Shown: one piece after another, positions 1 through 33,201 of the stretch | How positions within the stretch are numbered: the stretch's first letter is position 1 | How the letters are laid out: each line of letters opens with the position of its first letter | Assembly (NCBI GenBank): GCA_024679065.1 | Contig: JAGIQG010000004.1 | Coordinates: forward strand, 37,076,001 to 37,140,000 | From: Sphyrna mokarran | Lineage: Eukaryota | Length of the DNA stretch: 64,000 nt | Direction: 5' to 3' | The notes under the pieces: generated by a model | The model's database searches: none | The model's input: the letters and a program-made list of their open reading frames with translations, nothing else | What the model was told of the DNA's origin: nothing | Made by a program: the position numbers and the translations under genes

Positions 1-679
1 GTCCTGACCACAAATTGTATTCGTATTTCATCCCCTTAACCATTTTGGTCTAAACCAGGATATCAAACCTGAAGCCTTGCTTATGTGCATGGCAGGACTC
101 AAGTTGCCATCTATTTAGCAAGCAAGCTATTGAGGAAATTAACCACTCTCATTTCCTCTCCGATTGCATACTTCAGGAATGGCCAACGGTGATCTCAGAG
201 TTACTGGGAATGGGGGAAGTGAGCTGGTTCTCAAGCAGATAATCCCTGGGCATTCCCCCTTTCTTCCAAGTATTAAGATAAAGATAAATAAAAAGCAATT
301 TTGCAAATTAAGACAAACTATAATAGAATCTCTTCAAAAAAGTCATACTGTGTGAGAGTAATTTGTAGAGAATGCAGTATTGCATCAAGTCAAATTCTGA
401 AGAATGCTGAGAATAGATACTTAGGATGTGGGACTCATCTCTTCAGCAATGCATAATGTGTTTGGTGCATGGAATGAAATATTCCTTAAGTACTGTAAAT
501 AGTGATTGTCACAATTTAATTTACATTTTAGAAATAAATACTGTTTTAATAGAATTTTCTGCCAGAAATTCAAAGAAAATCTCATGAATTAAGTCATTTC
601 GTTGCTACACATTTCAGTGGACAACCTGTCTATTTGCACCTGAAATTCCTGAAAACACAGTTCATTTGATACAGTTCAA

Positions 680-2455
680 TGTAGATTGGAGGCGCAGATT
701 CATTGGTAGGATGGCTGAGGAACAGTGAAGGATTTTTAAGGATCTTTTTCGGTATTCAGCAGAAATATATTCTGATGGTAAAGAAGGACTATAGAAGAAG
801 GGAAAATCAGCCATGGTTTTCAAAGGAAATAAAGGAGAGTATTAAATTAAAAGCTGATGCGTTCAAAGCAGCTAAAAATAGTGGGCGATTAGAAGATTGG
901 GAAAGTTTTAAACAACAACAAAGAATGACTGAGAAAGTGATAAAGAAAGGAGAGATAGAGTATGAGGCTAAACTAGCTCTAAATATAAAAAAAGACAGCA
1001 AAAGTTTTTACAAATATATGTAGAGGAGAAGACTGGCTAGACTGAACGTTGGACCCTTGGAGGACGAGAGGAGGGATTTAGCGGTGGGCGATGAAGAAAT
1101 GGCTGAGGTTTTAAACAAGTTTTTTGTGTCGGTCTTCACAGAGGAGGACACAAATAATTTGCTGGATATTAAAGATAGAAGGACGGTAGGAGATGAAGTC
1201 CTTGATGCAATTACAGTCACTAGAGAGGTAGTGCTTGATAGACTAACAGGGCTGAAGGTAGATAAGTCCCCAGGACTGGATGGAATGCATCCTAGGGTTC
1301 TGAAAGAAATGACATAGGTGATAAGGATGCCTTAGTAATTATTTATCAAAAATTCGCTGGACTCCGCAGAATTGCCGAAAGATCGGAAAATGGCTAATGT
1401 TACGCCGCTGTTTAAAAAGGTAGCAGACAAAAGGCAGGGAATTATAGGCCGATTAGTTTAACATCTGTAATCTGAAAAATGCTTGAATCCGTCATCAAAG
1501 AAGAAATAGCAAGGCACCTAGAAAAGAACGGTTTGATCAAGCAGACACAGCACGGATTCGTTGAGGGGAAATCGTGTTTGACAAATTTATTGGATTTCTA
1601 TGAGGATGTGACTGGTGCAGTAGACAGAGGGGAACCGGTGGATGTGGCGTTTTTAGATTTCCAGGAGGCATTTGATAAGGTGCCTCACAAAAGGTTGCTG
1701 CAAAATGTTAGAGTGCAAGGAGTTGGGGATAAGGTATTAGCGTGGATAGAGGATTGGTTGTCTAATAGGAAGCAGAGAGTAGGAATCAATGGGTGCTATT
1801 CTGGTTGGCAGCTGGTACTTGTGAAGTGCCTCTGGGATCGTTGCTGGGGCCTCAACTGTTTACCATACACATAGATGATCTGGAGGAAGGGGCTGAGTGT
1901 AGGGTAACGAAATTTGCTGATGATACGAAGATGAGTGGAAAAGCAAATTGAGTGGAGGGTGTGGAAAGTCTGCAGAGAGGTCTGGATAGGTTGAGTGTGT
2001 GGGCGAGGACCTGGCAGATGGAGTACAATGTTGGCAAGTGTGGGGTTATCCACTTTGGTAGAAATAATAGTAGGAGGGATTATTATTTAAAGGGTGAAAA
2101 GCTGCAGCATGCTACAGTGCAGAGGGACCTGGGGGTCCTTGTGCACGAATCACAAAAACCCAGTCTGCAGGTGCAGCAGGTGATCAAGAAGGTGAATGGA
2201 ATGTTGGCCTTTATAGCGAGGGGATAAAATGTAAAAGTAGGGAGGTCTTGTTGCAACCTTACAGGGTGCTGGTGAGACTACAGCTGGAGTACTGTGTGCA
2301 GTTTTGATTGCCGCATTTGCGGAAGGATACATTGGCCTTGGAGGGAGTGTAGAGAAGGTTTGCTCGGCTGATACCAGATATGAGGGGGTTAGCCTATGAA
2401 GAGAGATTGAATAGACTGGGTCTGTACTCGTTAGAGTTTGGAAGGCTGAGGGAGA
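680..2455 (+). mobile_element. CR1-clade LINE ORF2 fragment (reverse transcriptase), truncated at both ends and disrupted
   Basis: ORF pieces KSPGLDGMHPRVLKE, QHGFVEGKSCLTNLLDFYE, VDVAFLDFQEAFDKVPH, YIDDL..KFADD, WQMEYNVGKC and QRDLGVLV, split by stops and frameshifts. Confidence 0.93.
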
Positions 2456-3374
2456 TTCGAGTGAGAAGTTGAACTGACAAAACAGGTGGGATCTAGAATA
2501 GTTTTCCTACTGGTTCAGTGCTTTTGGGAGAATCGCAGCTTTGATTTGCACTCTAAAGCTTTGGCATTCTTTTTAATCACATGTACTAAGTGATGTGCAT
2601 TATATGTAACTTCTCTTTAAAATATTGTATCAAACAATTTAAACATTCATTATTTAACTGGAATCAGAATGGATGAGAAAGATCTGGATTTACATTGGAA
2701 AACATAACTTTTTTCAGACGAGGAGAAAGATTAACAAATTAAGCTTTAGAATTTGAGAATGTGCATTTAAGAACTTCTCCTTTTCCTTAAAAAACAATGA
2801 CATTTCAAGAACAAACAGCCAGATGAAAATATGCTTTGTAGTAAAAACATATGGAAGAGCATTTTACTTTGGTAACGAGAAATGAGAGAGTTTAATCCAA
2901 GGGTAGAGTGGTAAATTGAACTTCAATTGCACGTAAGAGGGCTAGAGCTGGCTCAAAAGAGTCACACAGCTAGATTCTTATGGACACATTATTTTCTACA
3001 AGGACCCCCACTTCACTATGACAACAGCAAGATTAATGCATTGAAGCTGAGAGACAAGTGCCCATGAAATAGGCAGAATGAAGGGTTTGGACCTTGGCTG
3101 GATCCCAGCTTCATTCAGCCACCCAGTTTTGCTTTTCCTAAAATATACAGGACACCAGAAAATAATTCATCATAATCAATAAAATCACCACTTAGGAGCT
3201 AAATATTTTTCATAAAAGCTGCCCAAATAAATTAGTTAATGGTATTATAGAATTCCAAAACTCTCTTTCCTACAATTATGATTAAAACCATTGAATAAAC
3301 CATTGAATTCCTACAGGGCAGAAAGAGGCTATTCAGCCCATCAAGTCTGCAGTGACTCTCTGAAAGGACATCTT

Positions 3375-3614
3375 AGTAAGAGGTCTGATAACACCAATTT
3401 TAAATCCAACCAATTTATTTGATAGTAAACTTGCAAGCTTTCGGCTTTTGTAGCCTTCCTCAGGCGAATGAGACCTCAGACCTCATTTGCCTGAGGAAGA
3501 CTACAAAAGCTGAAAGCTTGCAAGTTTACTATCAAATAAATCGATTGGATTTAAAATTGGTGTTGTCAGACCTCTTACTGAGTTTACCCCAGTCCAACGC
3601 CAGCATCTCTACAT
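3375..3614. mobile_element. Penelope-like element terminal fragment forming a 98-bp-arm inverted repeat with hammerhead-like cores
   Basis: Arms 3375-3472 and 3482-3579 (6 mismatches, 9-nt loop). Tail ccccagtccaacgccagcatctc. Flanking duplication aaagg(a/g)catctta at 3363 and 3615. Confidence 0.75.
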
Positions 3615-3771
3615 AAAGGGCATCTTACCCAGGCCTCCTGCTCCCCCCTATCCCTGTAATACTGTGCATTTACCATGGCTAACCCAGCTAATTTACACAT
3701 CTTTGAACAATAAAGGACAATGTAGCATGGCCAATCCACTTAATCTGCACATCTTTGGATTGTGGGAGGAA

Positions 3772-4910
3772 TGATGTGAAGATGCTGGTGTTGGACTGGC
3801 GTAAGCACTGTAAGAAGTCTCACAACACCAGGTTAAAGTCCAACAGGTTTATTTGGCAGCACAAGCTTTCAGAGTCTCAAGATCCTTCATCAGGTGTTAA
3901 ACCAGGCGAGAAAGAGTGAACTGGCTCCCCTCCATTCAACCTCCTCAGTGGGTCACAGCAAAGGTTTAAGTTTCTTTTTCACGAGAATAAGCCTTTCCAA
4001 ATCAGAATGTATTTAAATATTTAAGTTGTGAGTAATAAGGGGTCAATCAAAAAGATTTTCTTGAGTCGAAGAAAGAACAAATTTATTAACCGCTAAACTC
4101 AATAATAAAAATGTGACATCAAGCATTCGGTCAAATTGAGTTTGATTGTTTCTTGGGTGCAGTCACATGTAGAAGATATCATAATTATAGCAAGATGTTG
4201 GTTTGCTGGAAGGTTCTAGGTAGAGTTGACTTCTAAAACCAGGTGAAACATTTACTCTAAAAGAGACAGAAGCGGAGTGTAGCCTTCAGCTTGTTTCCTC
4301 TGCTGAAGGCTTTCTTGACACCACCTACATTTCTTACAATCTCTATCAAGTGACTGAGCAACTTTGCTTTGAAATACTTCACCCATTGAGCATTTTCAAG
4401 AGGCTTTGGTTGTGTCCGTGGCAGCCATTGTATTAATATCCAGTACTTTGCATTGCTAAAGTCTCTTCCTTCAGCAGTTATGAATTTCGATAGCTGTCTG
4501 GATTATGGGAAATTTCTCCCTCATCATTCTCTTCTTGGGTGATTTATCTGTTTTTCACCTTCACCTTGGAGTGTGGCCATGCATTTTAAGCAGCCTGCTC
4601 CATCTCAGTTCAAATGGAAAAAATTTCAGTCAGTTGAAAGTTGAAAAATCAAATTTTCAAAAATAACGGGGCATTGCTTAATAGTATTTATCCCCAATAT
4701 TCACCAATTCCACGTGCTAGTTGTATTATGTCTCTGCATTTTTTTACAATTTATAAATTACAAACATAATTTGTTTTTAGTAAATTGAACATTTATGAGC
4801 TATCACTATTTGCATACAACTACAATTTAAACAGGTGATGAAGGAGCTTGAGACTCTGAAAGCTAGTACTGTCAAATAAACCTGTTGGATTTTACCTGGT
4901 GTTCTGAGAC
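3772..4910. mobile_element. Second Penelope-like inverted terminal fragment (arms about 3818-3892 and 4836-4909) interrupted by a ~935 bp insert
   Basis: Left arm ..ggtttatttggcagcacaagctttcagagtctcaagatccttcatc and right arm gatgaaggagcttgagactctgaaagctagtactgtcaaataaacc are reverse complements. Flanking duplication gtgggaggaa at 3762 and 4912. Confidence 0.72.
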
Positions 4911-5699
4911 CGTGGGAGGAAACCAGAGAACCCGGAAGAAACCCACGCAGACAGAGGGAGAACGTGCAAATTCCACAGAGACACCCAATTACAATTTAAA
5001 ATTTAATCTTGTTGCAAAGTCATCCTACATGAGTCTGTGCACTTTCCATTACAGCAATAACACATACAATTCCATGAGATGACTAAATATGTGGCTACAT
5101 GTTGGTTCATATGCAGTGATGTATACAGAGATGTGCACAAATACTAAACATCCACTTTTTTCCACTGAGAATGATATCATAAAATCAACAGGAAATTGTA
5201 CTCACATAAGCATCATTAATATAGTAAAATGTCCCAAGATGATTCACTAGAATATGACCAGTTAAATATTGACTGTGAGCCAGAGCAGACAAAATTAAGA
5301 TAGGTTAGTCAAAATTTTAAAGAGTATCTTAAAGGAGGAGAGAGAAGTAGAGAGATGGGGGAGGGATTTGTTCACTATATATTACTCACTGTTGCTAAAT
5401 TAATTATGCTCTGATAGCCTGTTCCAATACTAACCATTTAACTGAATGCCAAATATTGCATATCTTGGGATACAAGATTGTAACTCAGCCAAACAGAAGA
5501 TGTCAAGTTTAGTTGAGAAAGTCTACCAAAGTAACTGAGTATGAATGTTTATCAATTTGGAGACAAACAAACAAGTTGCCTTTCTAACAGAGCTGTCCAA
5601 GCGAACTCTGACCAGTTTCAGGTGTAGCTATGATGGCACCATTTCAGTCACAAGCACAATTTTAAATAAGAAATAGCTTACAACAAGACCAGGGGGAGG

Positions 5700-6270
5700 G
5701 GAGGTGTGATTCTTCCAGCCTGCTGAAGAATCACCAGGAGACATTCGCGGAGGCCGTTTAGCAAGCTCTCCGTTGGACACCACAGCCTCTGCGCATCTCC
5801 CAGATGGAGATTTTTGGAGTAATCAGCTCCACGCCATATTTAAATACTTAAATTTGGATTTTGATTTCGATTTCATTAGCGAGCTCGGGACTGAAGTCTC
5901 CGGACCTGCTATCATCCTCCCACTCCCACCCCCACCTCCCAACTCCAGCAGGGTTTACAACAGCTCCTCACAAATGGGGAACCAGCGGCCAACCCAGCTG
6001 GACAGAGCAGAAGCCACGGAGGCCCGTGAAGAGGTCGGGGATAAGGGGATGCCTACTGGGCATTGCCAGCCTGGCCCTCTGATACTGCCAAGGAGCAAAT
6101 TGGCAAGGGACATCTTGGGCTTTGGGCAGAGCCAAGGGGCAGAGGCTATTAGGAGTGAGGCCTATAGGAAGAGCGTTCATTGAGGGTGGGGGGTGTCACA
6201 CTGCCACTCTGCATAGGGATCAGTGACAGAGGAGGAGAAGGGAGTAATCTGTGGGCAACATTTCATTAAA
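5700..6270. repeat. GC-richer interspersed repeat, probable non-autonomous DNA-transposon relic
   Basis: Abrupt rise in GC content. Style resembles the elements at about 16310 and 58261. No coding homology recognised. Confidence 0.35.
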
Positions 6271-6344
6271 CATGGGCGTGAATAAGAGTACTTCACAGTA
6301 ACCTGTGAGATTTACATATTTGGAATATAGATTTCCGAGTGCCT

Positions 6345-7095
6345 TTTTTAATTTATGAGATGTGGACATTGCCAGCATTTATTGGTTATCCCTACCTGTC
6401 CTTCAGAAAGTGGTGGTGAGGGTGAACTGTCTTCTGAAACCGCTGCAGTCCCTGAGGTGTAGGTACACCCAGAGTACTGTTAGGGAAGCAGTTCCAAGAT
6501 TTTGACCTGGTGACAGTGAAGAAAGGTGATATATTTTCAAGTCAGGATTATGATGTGGAAGGGTAATTATCCCTGTTATCTGTTCTTATCCTTCTAGATG
6601 GTGATGATAATGATCATGGGTTTGGGAGGTACTGACAAAGGAACCTCGGTGAGTTCCTACAGAGCATTTTATAGATGGTTCACGTATCCGCCATTATACA
6701 CCTGTGATGGAGAGATCAAATGTTCATGGAATGGGTAGCTATCAGGCATGCTGTATTGTCCTGGATGATGTCACGCCTCTTGCATGTTGTTGGAGCTGCA
6801 CTCATACAGGCAAGTGGAAAGTATTCTATTACATTCTTCATTTGTGCCTTGTAGCTAGTGGACAGACTTTGTGAACCAGAAGGTGAGCTACTCACTACAG
6901 AATTCCTAGAATTTGACATTCTCTGGTAACCACATATGGTTGGCCAAATTCAGTTTCTGGGTAAATGCCAACCCCGAAGATGTTGATTGTGGAAGATTCA
7001 GCAATGGCAATGTCATTCAATGTCAAAGGACGATGGTTACATCCTCTCTTGTTGGAGAAGATCATTGTCTGGTACTTGTGTGGCGTGAATGCTAC
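6345..7095 (-). mobile_element. 3' fragment of a non-LTR retrotransposon (same family as 61410-63662)
   Basis: Reverse-strand peptides KYQTMIFSNKR..PLTLNDIAIAESSTINI and YKAQMKNVIEYFPLACMSAAPTT match the copy at 62.9-63.3 kb. The 3' tail is shared. Confidence 0.8.
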
Positions 7096-8081
7096 ATACT
7101 GAACAAGGGGTAGTATTGGTTGGGCACAGATGAGAGTGAATGACCATTGCATCAACGTGGTCTGGACCTCCAGAAATGTTAACTCTACAGTCATTTGACT
7201 GAAACTAACTTCCATTCTAAAATATCCTGAACAAAGAAAATCTAGTCGAGAAACATTTAAAAATCAAAAAGTATAATTTAACATCTGAAACATCAATGTT
7301 CATAGCTGAAATTCTTCTAATGCAGCCAAAATACTACTCATTTGCAAGAAGTTTCACAGCGTCATGAGAATCCTTTAGCCTGCAACTTTCTGGCTCCCCA
7401 GCATCAGATTTGAGGGCTACCTCAAAGATGTGTTGGGGAATCTTTCTGAGGAGTTGCCAGGTAAGGGTTTAATAAATGACTTGCTTTTTTTCAAAAAAAA
7501 ATTGCCAAAAAATCTGCTGTATGAACTTATTTTAAATTAGGAAATATCACTCTGAGAGTGAAGAAATGACCACACTTTAGATGCAAACATACTAATTATG
7601 TGTTGGAAGGTACTACACAAATTGTGTCCATTACAGAATTCTTAAGCTGTGCTGGCAAAAAAAAACACAGGAAAAGAGGCCGGAATCCTGGTCTTGGGTC
7701 CCATATGTCATTTTTAAAGGACTTGTGATTTGGTCCAACTCCATAAAGATACGTGCCAGTGTATCTTGTGCAGCTTCTAGATTTCTGTCCAGGAGTTGCA
7801 AGTGAAAGTTTGACATTATCAAAGCAATTGTTAAGAATGTTAGTTCACATGAGATTTGCGTTCTACCTTGAACGTATTCGGCTGTTGTTTCCTCTTCGCC
7901 ATGATATTCCATTTTAGAACTGCTCATTATTGATTGTGTTTTCTATATTCTGCTGACCTGAAGCAATTATTCTGATTGGTTGAGCCAATCATAATGACAG
8001 CTCTTCTCTTCATAAAATGCTCCTAAGGTTGCTGTTTAATTTTACTCGTAACGAAGAAGGAAAAGCACTCATACTGTTTAA

Positions 8082-19619: not shown

Positions 19620-19932
19620 ACATGTACCAACCGATTCAAGAACAGCTTCTTCCCTGTTGTCATCAGACTTTTGAATGGACCCACTTTATGTGAAGTTGAT
19701 CTTTCTCTACATTCTGGCTATGACTGCATTCTACATTCTCCTCTCCTCCTCTATGTGATTCCAAAAAAACGACTGGACTTTAACTTGGTATTGTGAGACT
19801 TCTTACTGTGTCCACCCCAGTCCAATGCCAGCATCTCCATGTCACACCTTCTCTATGCACGGCATGCTTTGTCTGTATAAGAAACATTTCACTGTTTACT
19901 AACACTTGTGACAATAATAAGTCAAGTCAAAT
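19620..19932 (+). mobile_element. Rex1/Babar-like LINE 3' tail with an inserted Penelope-like end (about 19756-19846)
   Basis: accaaccgattcaagaacagcttcttccctg..atcagacttttgaatggac..gtgacaataataagtcaagtcaaat. The insert ..ggtattgtgagacttcttactgtgtccaccccagtccaatgccagcatctcc is flanked by a cct(c/t)ctctatg duplication. Confidence 0.7.
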
Positions 19933-27176: not shown

Positions 27177-27617
27177 TCAGTTTGATACAATTTCTTTGTT
27201 GTCTTCCACCAAGCGGGTGAATTTATGGTTCGTTCCATTTTCAGTGGTTGACATTTTCTCCAGACCAGCTAGAGGTGCACTGGGTTCAGTATTGTGAAGC
27301 TTCTCCATGCTTCCCGTTAAACCACTGATGGGCGAGCTGCCACCATTGCCCAGACTAGCAGGGTTTGGAGGAAGTCCACCATTCTGAATCACTGAAATCT
27401 CATTGGTCTTCATTGCTAAGCCATTCGTTAGTGCCGCTGCGTACTGGTTCCAAAATGAAGAAGGGTCTCCGTCACGAGCTCGAACAGCCAAATCCTTCTG
27501 AAGCATTTCTGTGAATTTAATGGGATTTCCACTTAGGAATGCCATGGGACCATCCACTGAAAGACGCCGCCCTCGCCTTGCAGGGGCACTGTTCCACATG
27601 TGTGTCCCCATGTGAAC
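27177..27617 (-). CDS. SALL1: SALL1 coding exon 3 (completes the last zinc finger; C-terminus ..[15 protein letters not shown])
   Basis: Acceptor ttacag|GTT CAC ATG ([20 protein letters not shown]), then [27 protein letters not shown]. The C-terminus resembles human SALL1 (FTRFVEDSKEIVTS) rather than SALL3 or SALL4. TGA at 27179-27177. Confidence 0.96.
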
Positions 27618-28729
27618 CTGTAATGTCAAAAATCAGATCGAACAAAGTTAGATCAGGCAATCACACAAGAATTGGGTATCAACAAAGACACTGCCATACC
27701 CAATCTACGGACAAGAAAAATGCATGCATTTTGGGGCCATGTTCGGCGTTTAGCTAAGACTGCTGCATCCAATTTCGTTGTGATAACTCACATTATATCT
27801 GACATCACTAACACTGCAAGTAAACATCCTTATCAGACAGGGATAAAATATCTTTAACTTGACAGTCTGATTGCTCATCAGAGACAAGTCACTGAAGGTT
27901 ATTATTCCTCTCATATTACATGGGCAATCCCAAGAGAAGTAGTTTGTCAGAAGAAATCGGCACATATTTGTTGTGCTCAATGGTTCCTTAAATTAAATAC
28001 CGAACAAAAGGACATTTAAATTTTTAGAGTCTTTTATCCCCCCATAGCTTTGTTAATCCATTTCCTACAAGTGAATAGTTAAACATCAGAATGTAAAAAA
28101 AATTTGAATTTTATTAACTGTTTGCAAGAATTGATTGTTTTACAAATGATTTGCACACAATTTAAGCATACTGCAATATTTTCCATTAATATAAATTGTA
28201 CTTTGATTTTTCTGGCATAATGTCAATTTTCGATATTTTTGACTCTCTTAACACCATGCATTGATTACACTTATATAATTTATTATCCCATTTCTCCACT
28301 CTCCTCCAACATCCTACCCACCCGACTTTTCACAAGAGACACAGAAATATCTCTGGGAATCTATGCTATCCTCTTTATTGTATAGAATTCTGAAATATGC
28401 AGATATCTCTGTACACATTGGCAGGTTTCTTGGTCAACCCATGAACACGTTCACCGTGACTGATAAAACCAACCCAAGGAAGAGGCCAGAGTGCTACTGC
28501 CAACCAAGCTGGCATCAATCTCAGAATCTAGATCCAAACCTCAGTTCTACATTAGATGTCAATGATCCACCTTGTGCTTTTAAATTTGCCAGATAAACAA
28601 CTGGCAAACAATTTGTCTGTGCACTTCTTTCCAGCAGTTGATAAAATAAAAGTAGAGTTAGTGTCTGAGGTAGTATGGTGTGCCGGACTCATTTGATGAT
28701 TTGGGTTTATTTGGAGCTAATGGACAAAG

Positions 28730-28890
28730 AATCATAGAATCCCTACAGTATAGAAGAAGCCCTTTGGCCTGTCGAGCCTGCAATGATGGCAATCCCACCG
28801 AGGTCTTATCCCAATAACGTCACATATTTACCATGCTAGTCCCACTGACCATAAGGGGAAATTTACCATGGCCAATCCATCTAACGCACA
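28730..28890 (-). mobile_element. HE1-like SINE 3' fragment in SALL1 intron 2
   Basis: atcatagaatccctacagtatagaagaagccctttggcc..aatttaccatggccaatccatctaac. Confidence 0.8.
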
Positions 28891-29361
28891 TTATCCTTGA
28901 AGAAATCACAATAAATTCTGCCTTACAGACATTTTAATGGAAAGTATCAAGCCGTTATTATCGCTGATATCTGTACCTTCTTTGATACATCATCTAATTG
29001 GTCTAAAACATAAATATACTTCAACATTACTGACCCTATTACAGATTGAAAAGGTATTGTTCTGAAATAAATGTGGGATTGCACGTTTTCCATTTCGTTG
29101 ACTCCAAAGTCAATTAAGAGGATTCACATTTATAGCTACTGCTTTAGTTGCATTGCATACAGGATTAGAATTGCATTTTGTTTAACAAAGCAAACTGCTT
29201 ATAATTTGCATAAGATAAAACAGCATACTCTGTTCTTCTCACCTTCCTCCTTACGTCTTTAAAGCCAACAGTATGACTAGATGCTGCTCTGATTCCATTT
29301 CAGTTTAATATCTAAATCACATGCACAAATTCAACGCATTTAACATAATGCCAGAAAATAC

Positions 29362-32300
29362 CTTCAAGTTGCCTTTGGTGGTAAAAGCTCTTCCACATAT
29401 TGTACAGGCAAATGGTTTTTCACCAGTATGTGTTCTCTCATGTATCTGCAGAGCGCTGGATGAGGAGAATGTTTTCCCACATGCTGTGCAGTAATGCTGT
29501 TTCGGTGTTCTTCTTTGCGGTGCTGGCAGGACAGGCGAGATAGCAGATGCAGACAGAGGCCCTGATGAAATAAGGCTAGCAGGTGGATCTTTACAGTCCT
29601 GGGAACACCCATGCATGAAACCATTGACCTCAGTTTTGATTAGGGATGTCAAACTGTTAGCAGCCACATTTGAAGAGCTCTGATTAGGACCGATATTAGA
29701 GTTGTTGGGTTCAAACAGCTGAGATGGAAGGTCCCGCATCTGATGTGTCAACATGTGCTGCTTCAAATTACCCTTAGTGGAAAAGCCACGATTGCATACT
29801 GTGCAAATATATGGACGCTCTTTGGTATGGCTTCTGTAATGAATGTCCAAGGCACTCTGACAAGCAAATGCTTTGCCACAGATATCACAAGATGTATTCC
29901 TTAACTTACCCCGATCTCGACTGGGAAACAGCATGCTTAAAGCATCATCTTTAATTATTCGTTCTGCATTACTAGAAGTCAGATCTAAGGCACCACCATT
30001 GGTGGTTGCTGGAGATACTGAATTAGATAAATCTGGTAGTAAAGTTCTGTGCTGTCTCTCTTCACAGCCCGGTGACTTTGACCTACGACTATCTGTGTTG
30101 CTGTTGGCAGGGGATGGAGCCTGCATGGAAGAGGTAGATTCTGAAATGGCAGGACTTCCAGCACTCTGGCTCTCCATATCCCCTATCATTGAAAAAGAGT
30201 CACTAGTCATTTGGTCTCCATCTGCTGATCCGTTCTCACCTGACCTGAGGCTTGCTTGGAGCTGTTCAACAAGACCAGCGTTAATCATTTTCATTTGATT
30301 CTCAAGAGCTACAATACTGGACATTTCTGACGGCAATGGAGATGGAGATAAACTGCCTTGAGACACCTCTGCAGATTTGGGCGTGTCTGGTACACTACTA
30401 TCAGGACAATCTTCCATATTCTCATCTGAGTAGTCATCTATATCATCAAAATTTTTGTCTTCAAAAGAAGCCGTGTCAGATTCCATAGATTCAGGATAGT
30501 TGTCAGCGACGGGAGTATTTGGAATCTGGCCTCCCATATGCATTCGAATGTGCTGTTGCAATACCACAGCATTTGTGAATTTCTTCTGGCATATCGGACA
30601 AGAATGCTGAACTCTCAGTGGTGGCATGGCACGATGAACACCATAATGGGTTTTCAGATTTCCCTTAGTGGTGAATGCACGACCACAGACTTTGCATTTG
30701 AAGGGCCTCTCACCAGTATGTGTACGATAATGCATCTTCAGTGCACTATGGCAACTAAGAACTCGATGGCAAATGACACATTGGTTGGGGTCCGTCATCT
30801 TCCTGTCAATGTTTTCTACTAGCTGCTGCAACTTTGAAGTTTCTGACGCCTGCAAAGAATCTAAGAGACCTCCAAATGGAAACTTTGACTTAAACTGTTC
30901 TGACATAAGTGGTATAAGTGGGCTTGTAAAAGCAGAAGTAGTACTTAGACCTGAATCAGATGCACTTGAACTGACAGGGACAGCCAAGCTGGTGACAGAA
31001 TTAATAGATTGTGTGTTTTCATCTAGTTTACCATTTGAGGTAGGTGAAGCACTTTCTTCCATTTCGTCCAAATCATTCGCATTTTTCACGGAGGGTTCTG
31101 TCGCTCCTAAGTCACTCTGGACCGAGCCAGGAGGGCTACAAGATTGATTAACTGAGATAGACTGACACTCCTCTGATTTGATAATAGCCGACAAACCTGA
31201 TATGGTTGATGGGAGTGGCAGGCCCACAGATGTGGTCAGTGTAGGTAATACAGGCTTACTATCTAGCCAACTTGTTATAGGTTTTTCAGGTGGTATAGAC
31301 ATTCCATATGGAATACCTGTATTTGTTGGAACATTGTCTAAATGTTCTGGAACTGGATAGGGATTCATATGAATATGGGGATATTTTTCTCTGTGCCTCT
31401 GAAAGTGAACCTTCAAATTTCCTTTTGTGGAGAATCTGTTACCACAAATGTTGCATTTATAAGGTCTCTCGCCAGTATGGGAGCGCAAATGAATCTGCAA
31501 GGCACTGTCACTTCCAAACACTTTAGCACAAAACCTGCACTTATGTTTAAAGAAAGCCTCATCAGAGCTGCTTTTAGTCTCAAATACGACCACATTTGGT
31601 GGCTTGCCTTTCCTTTGATTTGCCAGAGCTGTCATTGAGCCAAGGTTTCCTGAAGTTGTTTCAATGCTTGAGAGAGGAGTGGAAAACACAGAAGTGGATG
31701 TGGAGGTTTGAGGTAGCAGCGAGTTGGACAAACTGGATGCAGGACTTAGTAAACTGCTAATTCCAAGAGCTGGTGTGGACACTGTAGATACCGAAGGACT
31801 GATTAACTGAGAATCACTAATGGTACTTGTAGATACGTTTTCAGAGGGCTGTATGGTACTAGGCAATGAGGATGCAGTTACTTTTGGAGAACTACTGCCA
31901 GGCTGAGCTATGGTGCTTCCAAGGCTGCTCTGAGGTAGATGAAGTTGCTTTCCACCATTGATGCTGGCAGATTGGCTGGCAAGGCTCTGTGCTAGCCCAG
32001 CTGCAGCAGCAAGCTGCTGAGATAGATGTGAACTAAGTGTAGTTAATGGATTAACAGTAGTTCCTAAAGTACCTTGGGAAGAGTTAACTGATGGTGGAAT
32101 TTCTGCATTTTGGGAAGCCAGTAGGATTATCTGGTGACGGATTTGTTCAATAAGCTGTAACTGATGGATTTGTTGTTGTTGCAAAGCCAGTAGTTGTTCC
32201 ATAAGTGCTGGAACAGCAACCTTGCTGTTTGATGCACTATTAGATCTTGTTTCCTGGGAGAACTGGGCTACAGCCACTTTAGTACTTTGAAGATTTTCAA

Positions 32301-32777
32301 TGATCACATTACTGTTTAACATTGAGAAATTTCCCAGAGCTGTTAGATCACCTATATGAGGTAGAGGTGTTGTGACAGCTGAGGTACCCATTGTGGGATA
32401 ATTACTGCTTGTATTACTATTGTTATTACTGTTAGAACTGCTAACGTTGCTGTTGCTAGTGATGCTGGAAGTGTCCACCTCCATGGATTCTTCCTGGTCA
32501 ACTTTTTTATGCTCTACAAGATCATCACAGTCTGCTTGACTTGTGTTATTAATTTTGTCATTTGCTTCTTCAACAGGATTATCAGGAGATCTTGGAGAGG
32601 AGGCTTCTGAAGGAGCTGTTGAATTTTCATTTACAATCAGAACCAATTGTTTCTTAGTGCAAGTTTTTTTGTGATGAAGGAAATCGGGCAGTTCAAAGAA
32701 CTCAGCACAACATCGGCCACAGACATGAGCATCCCCATTCTTAAGGACTCGTTCTTCCCGCCCTTCTCGTGAAGTTC
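29362..32777 (-). CDS. SALL1: SALL1 coding exon 2 (C2HC finger, Q-rich dimerisation region, four C2H2 double-finger clusters)
   Basis: Acceptor ttttattttctag|GA at 32778/32777 continues exon 1 in frame ([43 protein letters not shown]) and overlaps the 1109-aa ORF. It contains [18 protein letters not shown] and the fingers HKCRFC/YKCNIC, NQCVIC/FKCKVC/HSCPIC, TSCDIC/YICTVC and HYCTAC/FACTIC, with SAL boxes F(S/T)TKGNLK. Donor AAG|GTATTT at 29362/29361. Exons 1+2 total 3489 nt (1163 codons). Confidence 0.97.
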
Positions 32778-33201
32778 CTAGAAAATAAAAGGGACAGGAG
32801 ATTAGTCAACAAGCAGACACAAGATTCCTCACCAAGTATCATACGCAAACAACATCAACAAAATATGGAGGTCGGGGGGTGCGCGGTGGTGGAGTAGAAA
32901 AAGAATCAATGATTGGACATCATAGATCTTACTTAGAATGAAGATCTGCAAAGCTTTCAACTGGATTCCATCATTCACTAAATCTCAGTGAATCAAGTAC
33001 CTTAAGACAATCTGTCAAAATATACATTTCTCCAAATTAAAGATATTGGTACTTAATGAAATGCCAAAGGAAGTATTGATTTCCAATATTTCATACACAT
33101 CATTTCCTTGTCCACTGGGTGCAAATCAAACATTTGAGGACTTGATAAGACTCTTCAGTATCTGTCAACTTTTTTTTCACTTCGAGAGAATAAGAGAGGT
33201 C

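Follow-up and report, generated by a model that had tools for sequence, protein, structure and literature searches.

The window analyzed, a stretch of 64,000 nucleotides from the hammerhead shark Sphyrna mokarran, contains a SALL-family zinc-finger gene, decayed LINE-type fragments, several pieces related to the ends of Penelope-like retroelements (PLEs) and, approximately 24 kb past the point near 27177 at which the final coding frame of the SALL-family gene ends, a near-perfect palindrome with a hammerhead motif on each strand (Table 1).

Table 1. Features of the window. Negative positions in the remarks are counted from the element end (0).
Feature	Position	Strand	Remarks
LINE-type RT/endonuclease-like fragments, decayed	1476..1874	+	judged by eye from translations
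Host interspersed repeat, left part	about 3290..3375		abundant; palindrome nested in it
Left TSD copy, 13 bp	3363..3375		paralogous empty sites; family TSD median 13 nt
Palindrome, 205 bp	3375..3579		arms 3375..3472 and 3482..3579, 98 bp each
Inverted 5´-truncated copy of PLE end, without tail	3376..3472	-	spans about -132 to -32 from element end
Minimal type I hammerhead motif	3427..3472	-	core 3463-3439; stem II 4/4 with G10.1-C11.1; stem I 5/6; GCUU at predicted cleavage site
Junction insert	3473..3479		short tandem duplication together with right-arm start; genome-unique
Direct 5´-truncated copy of PLE end (pLTR end and tail)	3480..3614	+	-134 to 0; 93% identical to L171 5´ pLTR
Minimal hammerhead motif	3482..3527	+	core 3491-3515, intact; stem I 6/6; stem II damaged (G-U at 10.1-11.1 and A-C mismatch)
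Unpaired ~32-35-nt tail, one arm only	3580..3614	+	in full-length L171, equivalent sequence stops just before ORF ATG
Right TSD copy	3615..3627		13-nt match to 3363-3375 with 1 mismatch
Host interspersed repeat, right part	about 3615..3770
Older copy of related PLE subfamily	3774..3900	-	76% to right arm, inverted relative to it; own hammerhead core 3893-3867, 160 nt from palindrome
Short diverged PLE-end fragment	4867..4911	+	78%
Short diverged PLE-end fragment	19760..19837	+	82%
SALL-family zinc-finger gene	27177..32805	-	large exon 29317-32805; 1162-aa open frame, SALL4 best PDB match (E 1.8e-62); last coding frame 27177-27632
LINE-type RT/endonuclease-like fragment, decayed	62262..62654		judged by eye from translations

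When the palindrome was re-measured by sequence comparison within the window, the values given in the initial annotation were recovered: the two arms differ at six of 98 positions (3389, 3410, 3412, 3443, 3454 and 3466), all of them transitions, and enclose a 9-nt loop, ACCTCAGAC. Both hammerhead cores also read as had been claimed. The 14-mer following each core, by contrast, was described as self-complementary and is so at only 12 of its 14 positions; within it lie AAGCTT, the palindrome of stem III, and the stem I 3´ strand.

The suspected ~13-bp target duplication was found as 13 nt with one mismatch, and paralogous empty sites support a true duplication. These sites came from a comparison of the palindrome flanks with 171 sequences, in which the left flank was matched in 42 and the right flank in 51. 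Among 19 adjacent flank-pair matches, four host-repeat paralogues (L046, L089, L108 and L128) carried the 13-mer once, without any insert and at an offset of exactly -12, while the remaining 15 were more distant variants with other offsets. Since the empty sites carry the 13-mer only once, the insert corresponds to positions 3376-3614. The palindrome is nested in the host repeat, which we take to be SINE-like. In contigs from four sequencing runs, paralogous repeats swamped the matches at the locus, no piece crossed the palindrome, and an orthologous empty site was not observed.

A genome search with the right arm returned 2270 candidates, 40 of which were scored, with full-length matches at 93-97% identity. 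Further, an exact 37-mer from this arm occurred 803 times in the 2.77-Gb genome, compared to none for the control. The copies of this large family have a fixed end and a variable 5´ extent, and some of them run upstream from the shared end into a GIY-YIG frame and, further up, an RT frame; the copy number and RT/GIY-YIG linkage that the initial annotation had proposed to look for were thus both observed. This ORF is present in family copies and absent from the truncated window locus. In the parent frames, Pfam detected PF01541 (GIY-YIG) at 23.2 bits against a cut-off of 22.6 and PF00078 (RT) at 32.5 and 32.2 bits against 29.6, scores which barely exceed the cut-off in all three frames tested, and a Cys/His-rich linker was found ahead of the GIY-YIG domain. 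The long ORF-bearing copies belong to a sister subfamily whose end is 85-90% similar and which is linked via the loci L003 and L010.

One copy, L171 (G000:C749:19341500-19347000), is a full-length PLE in which an inverted arm (465-1632, 1.17 kb) is followed by a 5´ pLTR (1650-1820), an ORF with its ATG at 1819 and a 3´ pLTR (4674-4842), with a TSD. The two pLTRs flank the ORF as a partial tandem and are 93% identical to each other; the ORF is broken, and its ATG directly follows the tail. The Penelope-like origin proposed for the palindrome is borne out by this relative, which carries RT and GIY-YIG frames and is 93% identical at the right arm. The proposal that an inverted terminal fragment is involved held as well, since the left arm is an inverted 5´-truncated copy of the PLE end without the last ~32 nt. 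The outer ends of the two arms lie at about 0 (right arm) and about -32 (inverted arm), inside the ~13-nt TSD.

In the available parts of PMC3846280 and PMC8557442, insertions of endonuclease-bearing (EN+) PLEs such as Pen2a_Av (PMC8557442, Fig. 2) have, like the window palindrome, an inverted 5´-truncated copy adjoining a direct copy, a 30-40-bp tail at one end, a TSD, a hammerhead in the pLTR and a parent with RT and C-terminal GIY-YIG. The arrangement seen in L171 is also given for PLEs in the accessible text of PMC8969392 and PMC2377424. All of these hallmarks of EN+ PLEs, i.e., the RT and C-terminal GIY-YIG parent, the flanking pLTRs, the inverted copy with a tail on one side only and the TSD, were found here. 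In contrast with the insertions described in those parts of PMC3846280 and PMC8557442, both window copies are cut to about 100-135 nt with no ORF between them, and the median TSD of 13 nt exceeds the 8-10 bp given there for rotifer PLEs. The Cys/His-rich linker of the parent frames resembles the Zn-finger-like RT-EN linker of Neptune/Nematis-type PLEs (PMC8557442, same parts). Together with the family data, this makes us confident that the palindrome goes back to one truncated insertion of a PLE with an endonuclease, in which two copies of the hammerhead-bearing end are placed head to head in a 13-bp TSD.

To describe the family as a whole, the first 94 of the 803 exact 37-mer matches as listed were used, which left 93 loci once the duplicate L095 was dropped; the exact match to the tail region biases this sample to young, tail-bearing copies. 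An adjacent inverted arm, defined by a gap of ≤130 nt and an identity of ≥83%, was present in 71 of the 93 loci, and short palindromes (≤300 nt) like that of the window in 47. The main arm had a median length of 137 nt. For 50 of the 71 inverted arms, the outer end was located between -27 and -37, with the window locus at -32. For the TSD and arm-correlation tests, 59 loci with an outer end between -45 and -20 were employed, the other 12 of the 71 inverted arms being set aside; a TSD of ≥9 nt was detected in 53 of these 59 (median 13), compared to 3% of 600 mismatched flank pairs. Arm lengths formed a continuum grading into the RT/GIY-YIG ORF. The window junction gave one match at ≤1 mismatch in the 2.77-Gb genome, and junctions varied among loci; this uniqueness indicates that the palindrome has not spread as a unit. 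Such palindromes are the form in which this PLE family most often inserts, and they are built anew at each landing.

Two sampled loci showed peculiarities of their own. At L149 (-376 to -201), a stretch of 25 nt from inside the element is present as ~6 tandem repeats at the junction between the arms, which suggests slippage during joining. L094 and L095 (C1:107.64-107.66 Mb) represent one insertion with a shared flank found twice, 11 kb apart, and reflect either segmental duplication or a sequence duplicated in the assembly.

With regard to the hammerheads, the motif matches the minimal type I form of PLEs, as had been supposed, with AAGCTT as the stem III palindrome. A convincing stem I had been reported missing, but it is present on both arms (Table 1). 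The minus arm has the core, the stem II with G10.1-C11.1, the NUH site and the helix I of a minimal type I hammerhead, whereas the plus arm fails in stem II. Features shared with the metazoan PLE hammerheads in the consulted portion of PMC4209133 are the CUGANGA core, the extra base before 10.1, G10.1-C11.1 (minus arm), a palindromic 15.2-16.2 without helix III and a short helix I; the window motifs differ in that stem II has only 4 bp and is broken on the plus arm, and in that a long hairpin traps the two of them. Pairs of opposite-strand motifs 100-700 bp apart are noted in the same portion. An Rfam search, recommended earlier for this motif, yielded 10 matches with E≤10, none of them to a hammerhead model; all were sub-threshold, and most were to miRNA-precursor models, which fell below the gathering score and match because of the palindrome hairpin.

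Folding gave a minimum free energy of -159 and -162 kcal/mol for the two strands. Each strand carries one sense ribozyme only, preceded by its own antisense. Accordingly, the earlier expectation for a transcript of either strand stood for the long hairpin and not for a ribozyme-containing RNA: the predicted probability of stems I and II was about 1e-47 (plus) and 1e-39 (minus) in the full hairpin, and 4e-5 and 0.03 in the isolated arms. Nor did a ribozyme dimer emerge from the proposed monomer and dimer folding, where, in the nearest-neighbour model employed, the isolated-arm trans-dimer paired the stem III/I sequences; a cis dimer of the inverted ribozymes was not possible. If transcribed, the locus is thus predicted to yield a hairpin of ~98 bp that keeps the only sense ribozyme from folding, and the palindrome is probably not a working ribozyme. 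Its hammerheads appear to be passengers of the insertion.

In the inserted copies, decay of the hammerhead core is neutral-looking: non-CpG changes amounted to 18/917 in the core and 204/7687 elsewhere (Fisher p=0.27), and at least 13 of 92 arms passed all strict hammerhead criteria, a lower bound as an indel variant was mis-scored. Stems that use different bases, as read by eye, are kept in the sister subfamily and in the older copy at 3893, which is what would be seen if the hammerhead fold were maintained in source elements. At the window locus, the arm-arm divergence of 6/98 is close to the family median of 6.2% (n=48). The locus is an old, decaying, ordinary PLE insertion of published architecture.

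Two other readings of the unit were considered. The initial annotation had seen in it a non-autonomous, retrozyme-like element, and a MITE-like palindrome that is transcribed, self-cleaving and mobile as a whole would likewise be short, devoid of an ORF, flanked by a TSD and provided with two hammerhead cores, and the similar size of 47 of the 93 sampled loci counts in its favour. However, the 2.77-Gb genome has this junction at a single place and different ones at other loci, tandem repeats were absent (none in positions 1-8000 of the window), arm lengths grade continuously into the RT/GIY-YIG ORF, and inverted ribozymes form no cis dimer, so that this reading was abandoned as extremely improbable. 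A non-LTR retrozyme was rejected in view of the lack of head-to-tail same-strand hammerhead units and the unreplicated junction: the non-LTR retrozymes in the part of bioRxiv 10.64898/2026.07.22.740005 at hand are, like the window palindrome, short, non-coding and related to PLEs, and they carry type I hammerheads, but they are head-to-tail tandems with same-strand ribozymes, whereas the window unit is head-to-head, single and unreplicated. A MITE or DNA-transposon TIR family was discarded on the one-sided tail, unlike TIRs in making the two ends asymmetric, the variable length and the RT-bearing parent. It is also quite unlikely, if a little less so, that the host has recruited the hairpin as an RNA element, i.e., as an siRNA/piRNA source, an editing substrate or a cis-element downstream of the SALL-family gene. 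The very stable hairpin predicted on both strands, its position past that gene and the small RNAs described for rotifer PLEs in the available part of PMC3846280 speak for such a role; yet the arms have diverged as much as the family median, the palindrome sits within another interspersed repeat, and like hairpins number hundreds in the genome.

How a truncated PLE insertion acquires two arms is a separate matter. According to the sections of PMC11167929 available to us, the PLE protein of a lizard Poseidon element, a predicted dimer, nicks and extends both target strands in vitro, and two RT start sites bound the tail. The outer ends at 0 and -32 would correspond, by analogy with this other PLE family, to these two start sites. 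The end positions thus point to a two-strand priming step, in which the PLE protein would nick both target strands in a staggered manner, ~13 nt apart, and reverse transcription would be primed from both nicked strands over the same RNA stretch, from the tail end (0) on one strand and from ~32 nt inside the tail on the other. At the window locus, both cDNAs would have stopped near -133, and end-joining that added a few templated bases would have linked them; the short duplication at the junction fits end-joining repair. Double-ended concerted priming by a PLE dimer from two start sites bounding the tail is, in our judgement, an evenly balanced proposition for the origin of these palindromes.

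In line with this proposition, the inner ends of the two arms were coupled, with a rho of 0.74 in the 59 loci, 0.54 in 43 short loci and 0.62 when refined ends were used (n=49), and lay ≤20 nt apart in 34 loci compared to 13.9 by permutation (maximum 25 of 10,000). The inverted arm was longer in 31 loci and shorter in 23. Such coupled, symmetric lengths fit simultaneous priming from both target strands. Subfamily variants were concordant between arms in 39/42, 40/44 and 36/47 cases, against 18.4, 28.3 and 22.6 expected. A less likely but serious competitor is that one cDNA or antisense template folded back and primed itself to give the inverted arm, without a second target strand; self-priming on an antisense template is favoured in the accessible part of PMC3846280, fold-back accounts for the shared arm variants, coupled arm lengths are naturally expected under it, and the junction centres that were overlapping and palindromic in 20 of 59 loci count in its favour. 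If a cDNA started at the tail end and then folded back, however, the inverted arm should never be the longer one, and among the 49 refined pairs it was >10 nt longer in 16, compared to nine in which the main arm was. Fold-back also leaves unexplained the fixed outer end near -32, where PMC11167929, in the sections available, maps the second RT start site. Later deletion at palindrome centres could have shaped the junctions as well. A literature search on twin priming and inverted Penelope copies, with subscription papers, Repbase and Dfam outside its scope, listed two papers, neither of which, judged by its title, deals with the PLE mechanism.

The distribution of 5´ ends was inspected for marks of other processes. 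A transcription-start mark was not established, as only a mild, weak hump was seen (17/128 ends at -133 to -127), and an apparent pile of ends turned out to be a subfamily-mismatch artefact. A pile-up at the predicted cleavage site was rejected, with 7/128 ends at -97 to -91 and no excess over neighbouring bins; four ends at -94 adjoin a polymorphic base that halts the alignment. This is consistent with the hammerhead being unneeded for insertion: in the same sections of PMC11167929, the PLE hammerhead cleaves only with protein and is dispensable for insertion in vitro. In the family (among L061-L150), hammerhead position 17, where cleavage is predicted, is occupied by either A or T, and this T/A site was discordant in 8 of 47 arm pairs while other variant sites were concordant.

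The window locus itself is of little weight, being one among hundreds or more dead insertions. In annotation, PLE palindromes of this kind can be mistaken for miRNA precursors, MITEs and retrozymes. The arm-length coupling is the sole part of wider use. The geometry of the family bears on the formation of tandem and inverted pLTRs, which is called undefined in the available part of PMC8557442, and that of the arms connects the two-start-site, two-strand result obtained in vitro (PMC11167929, sections available) with genomic insertions. Double-ended priming, if true, would give arms whose outer ends are fixed, which have subfamily variants in common and whose lengths are coupled yet symmetric, and hundreds of loci per genome would constitute a data set on how inverted pLTRs form.
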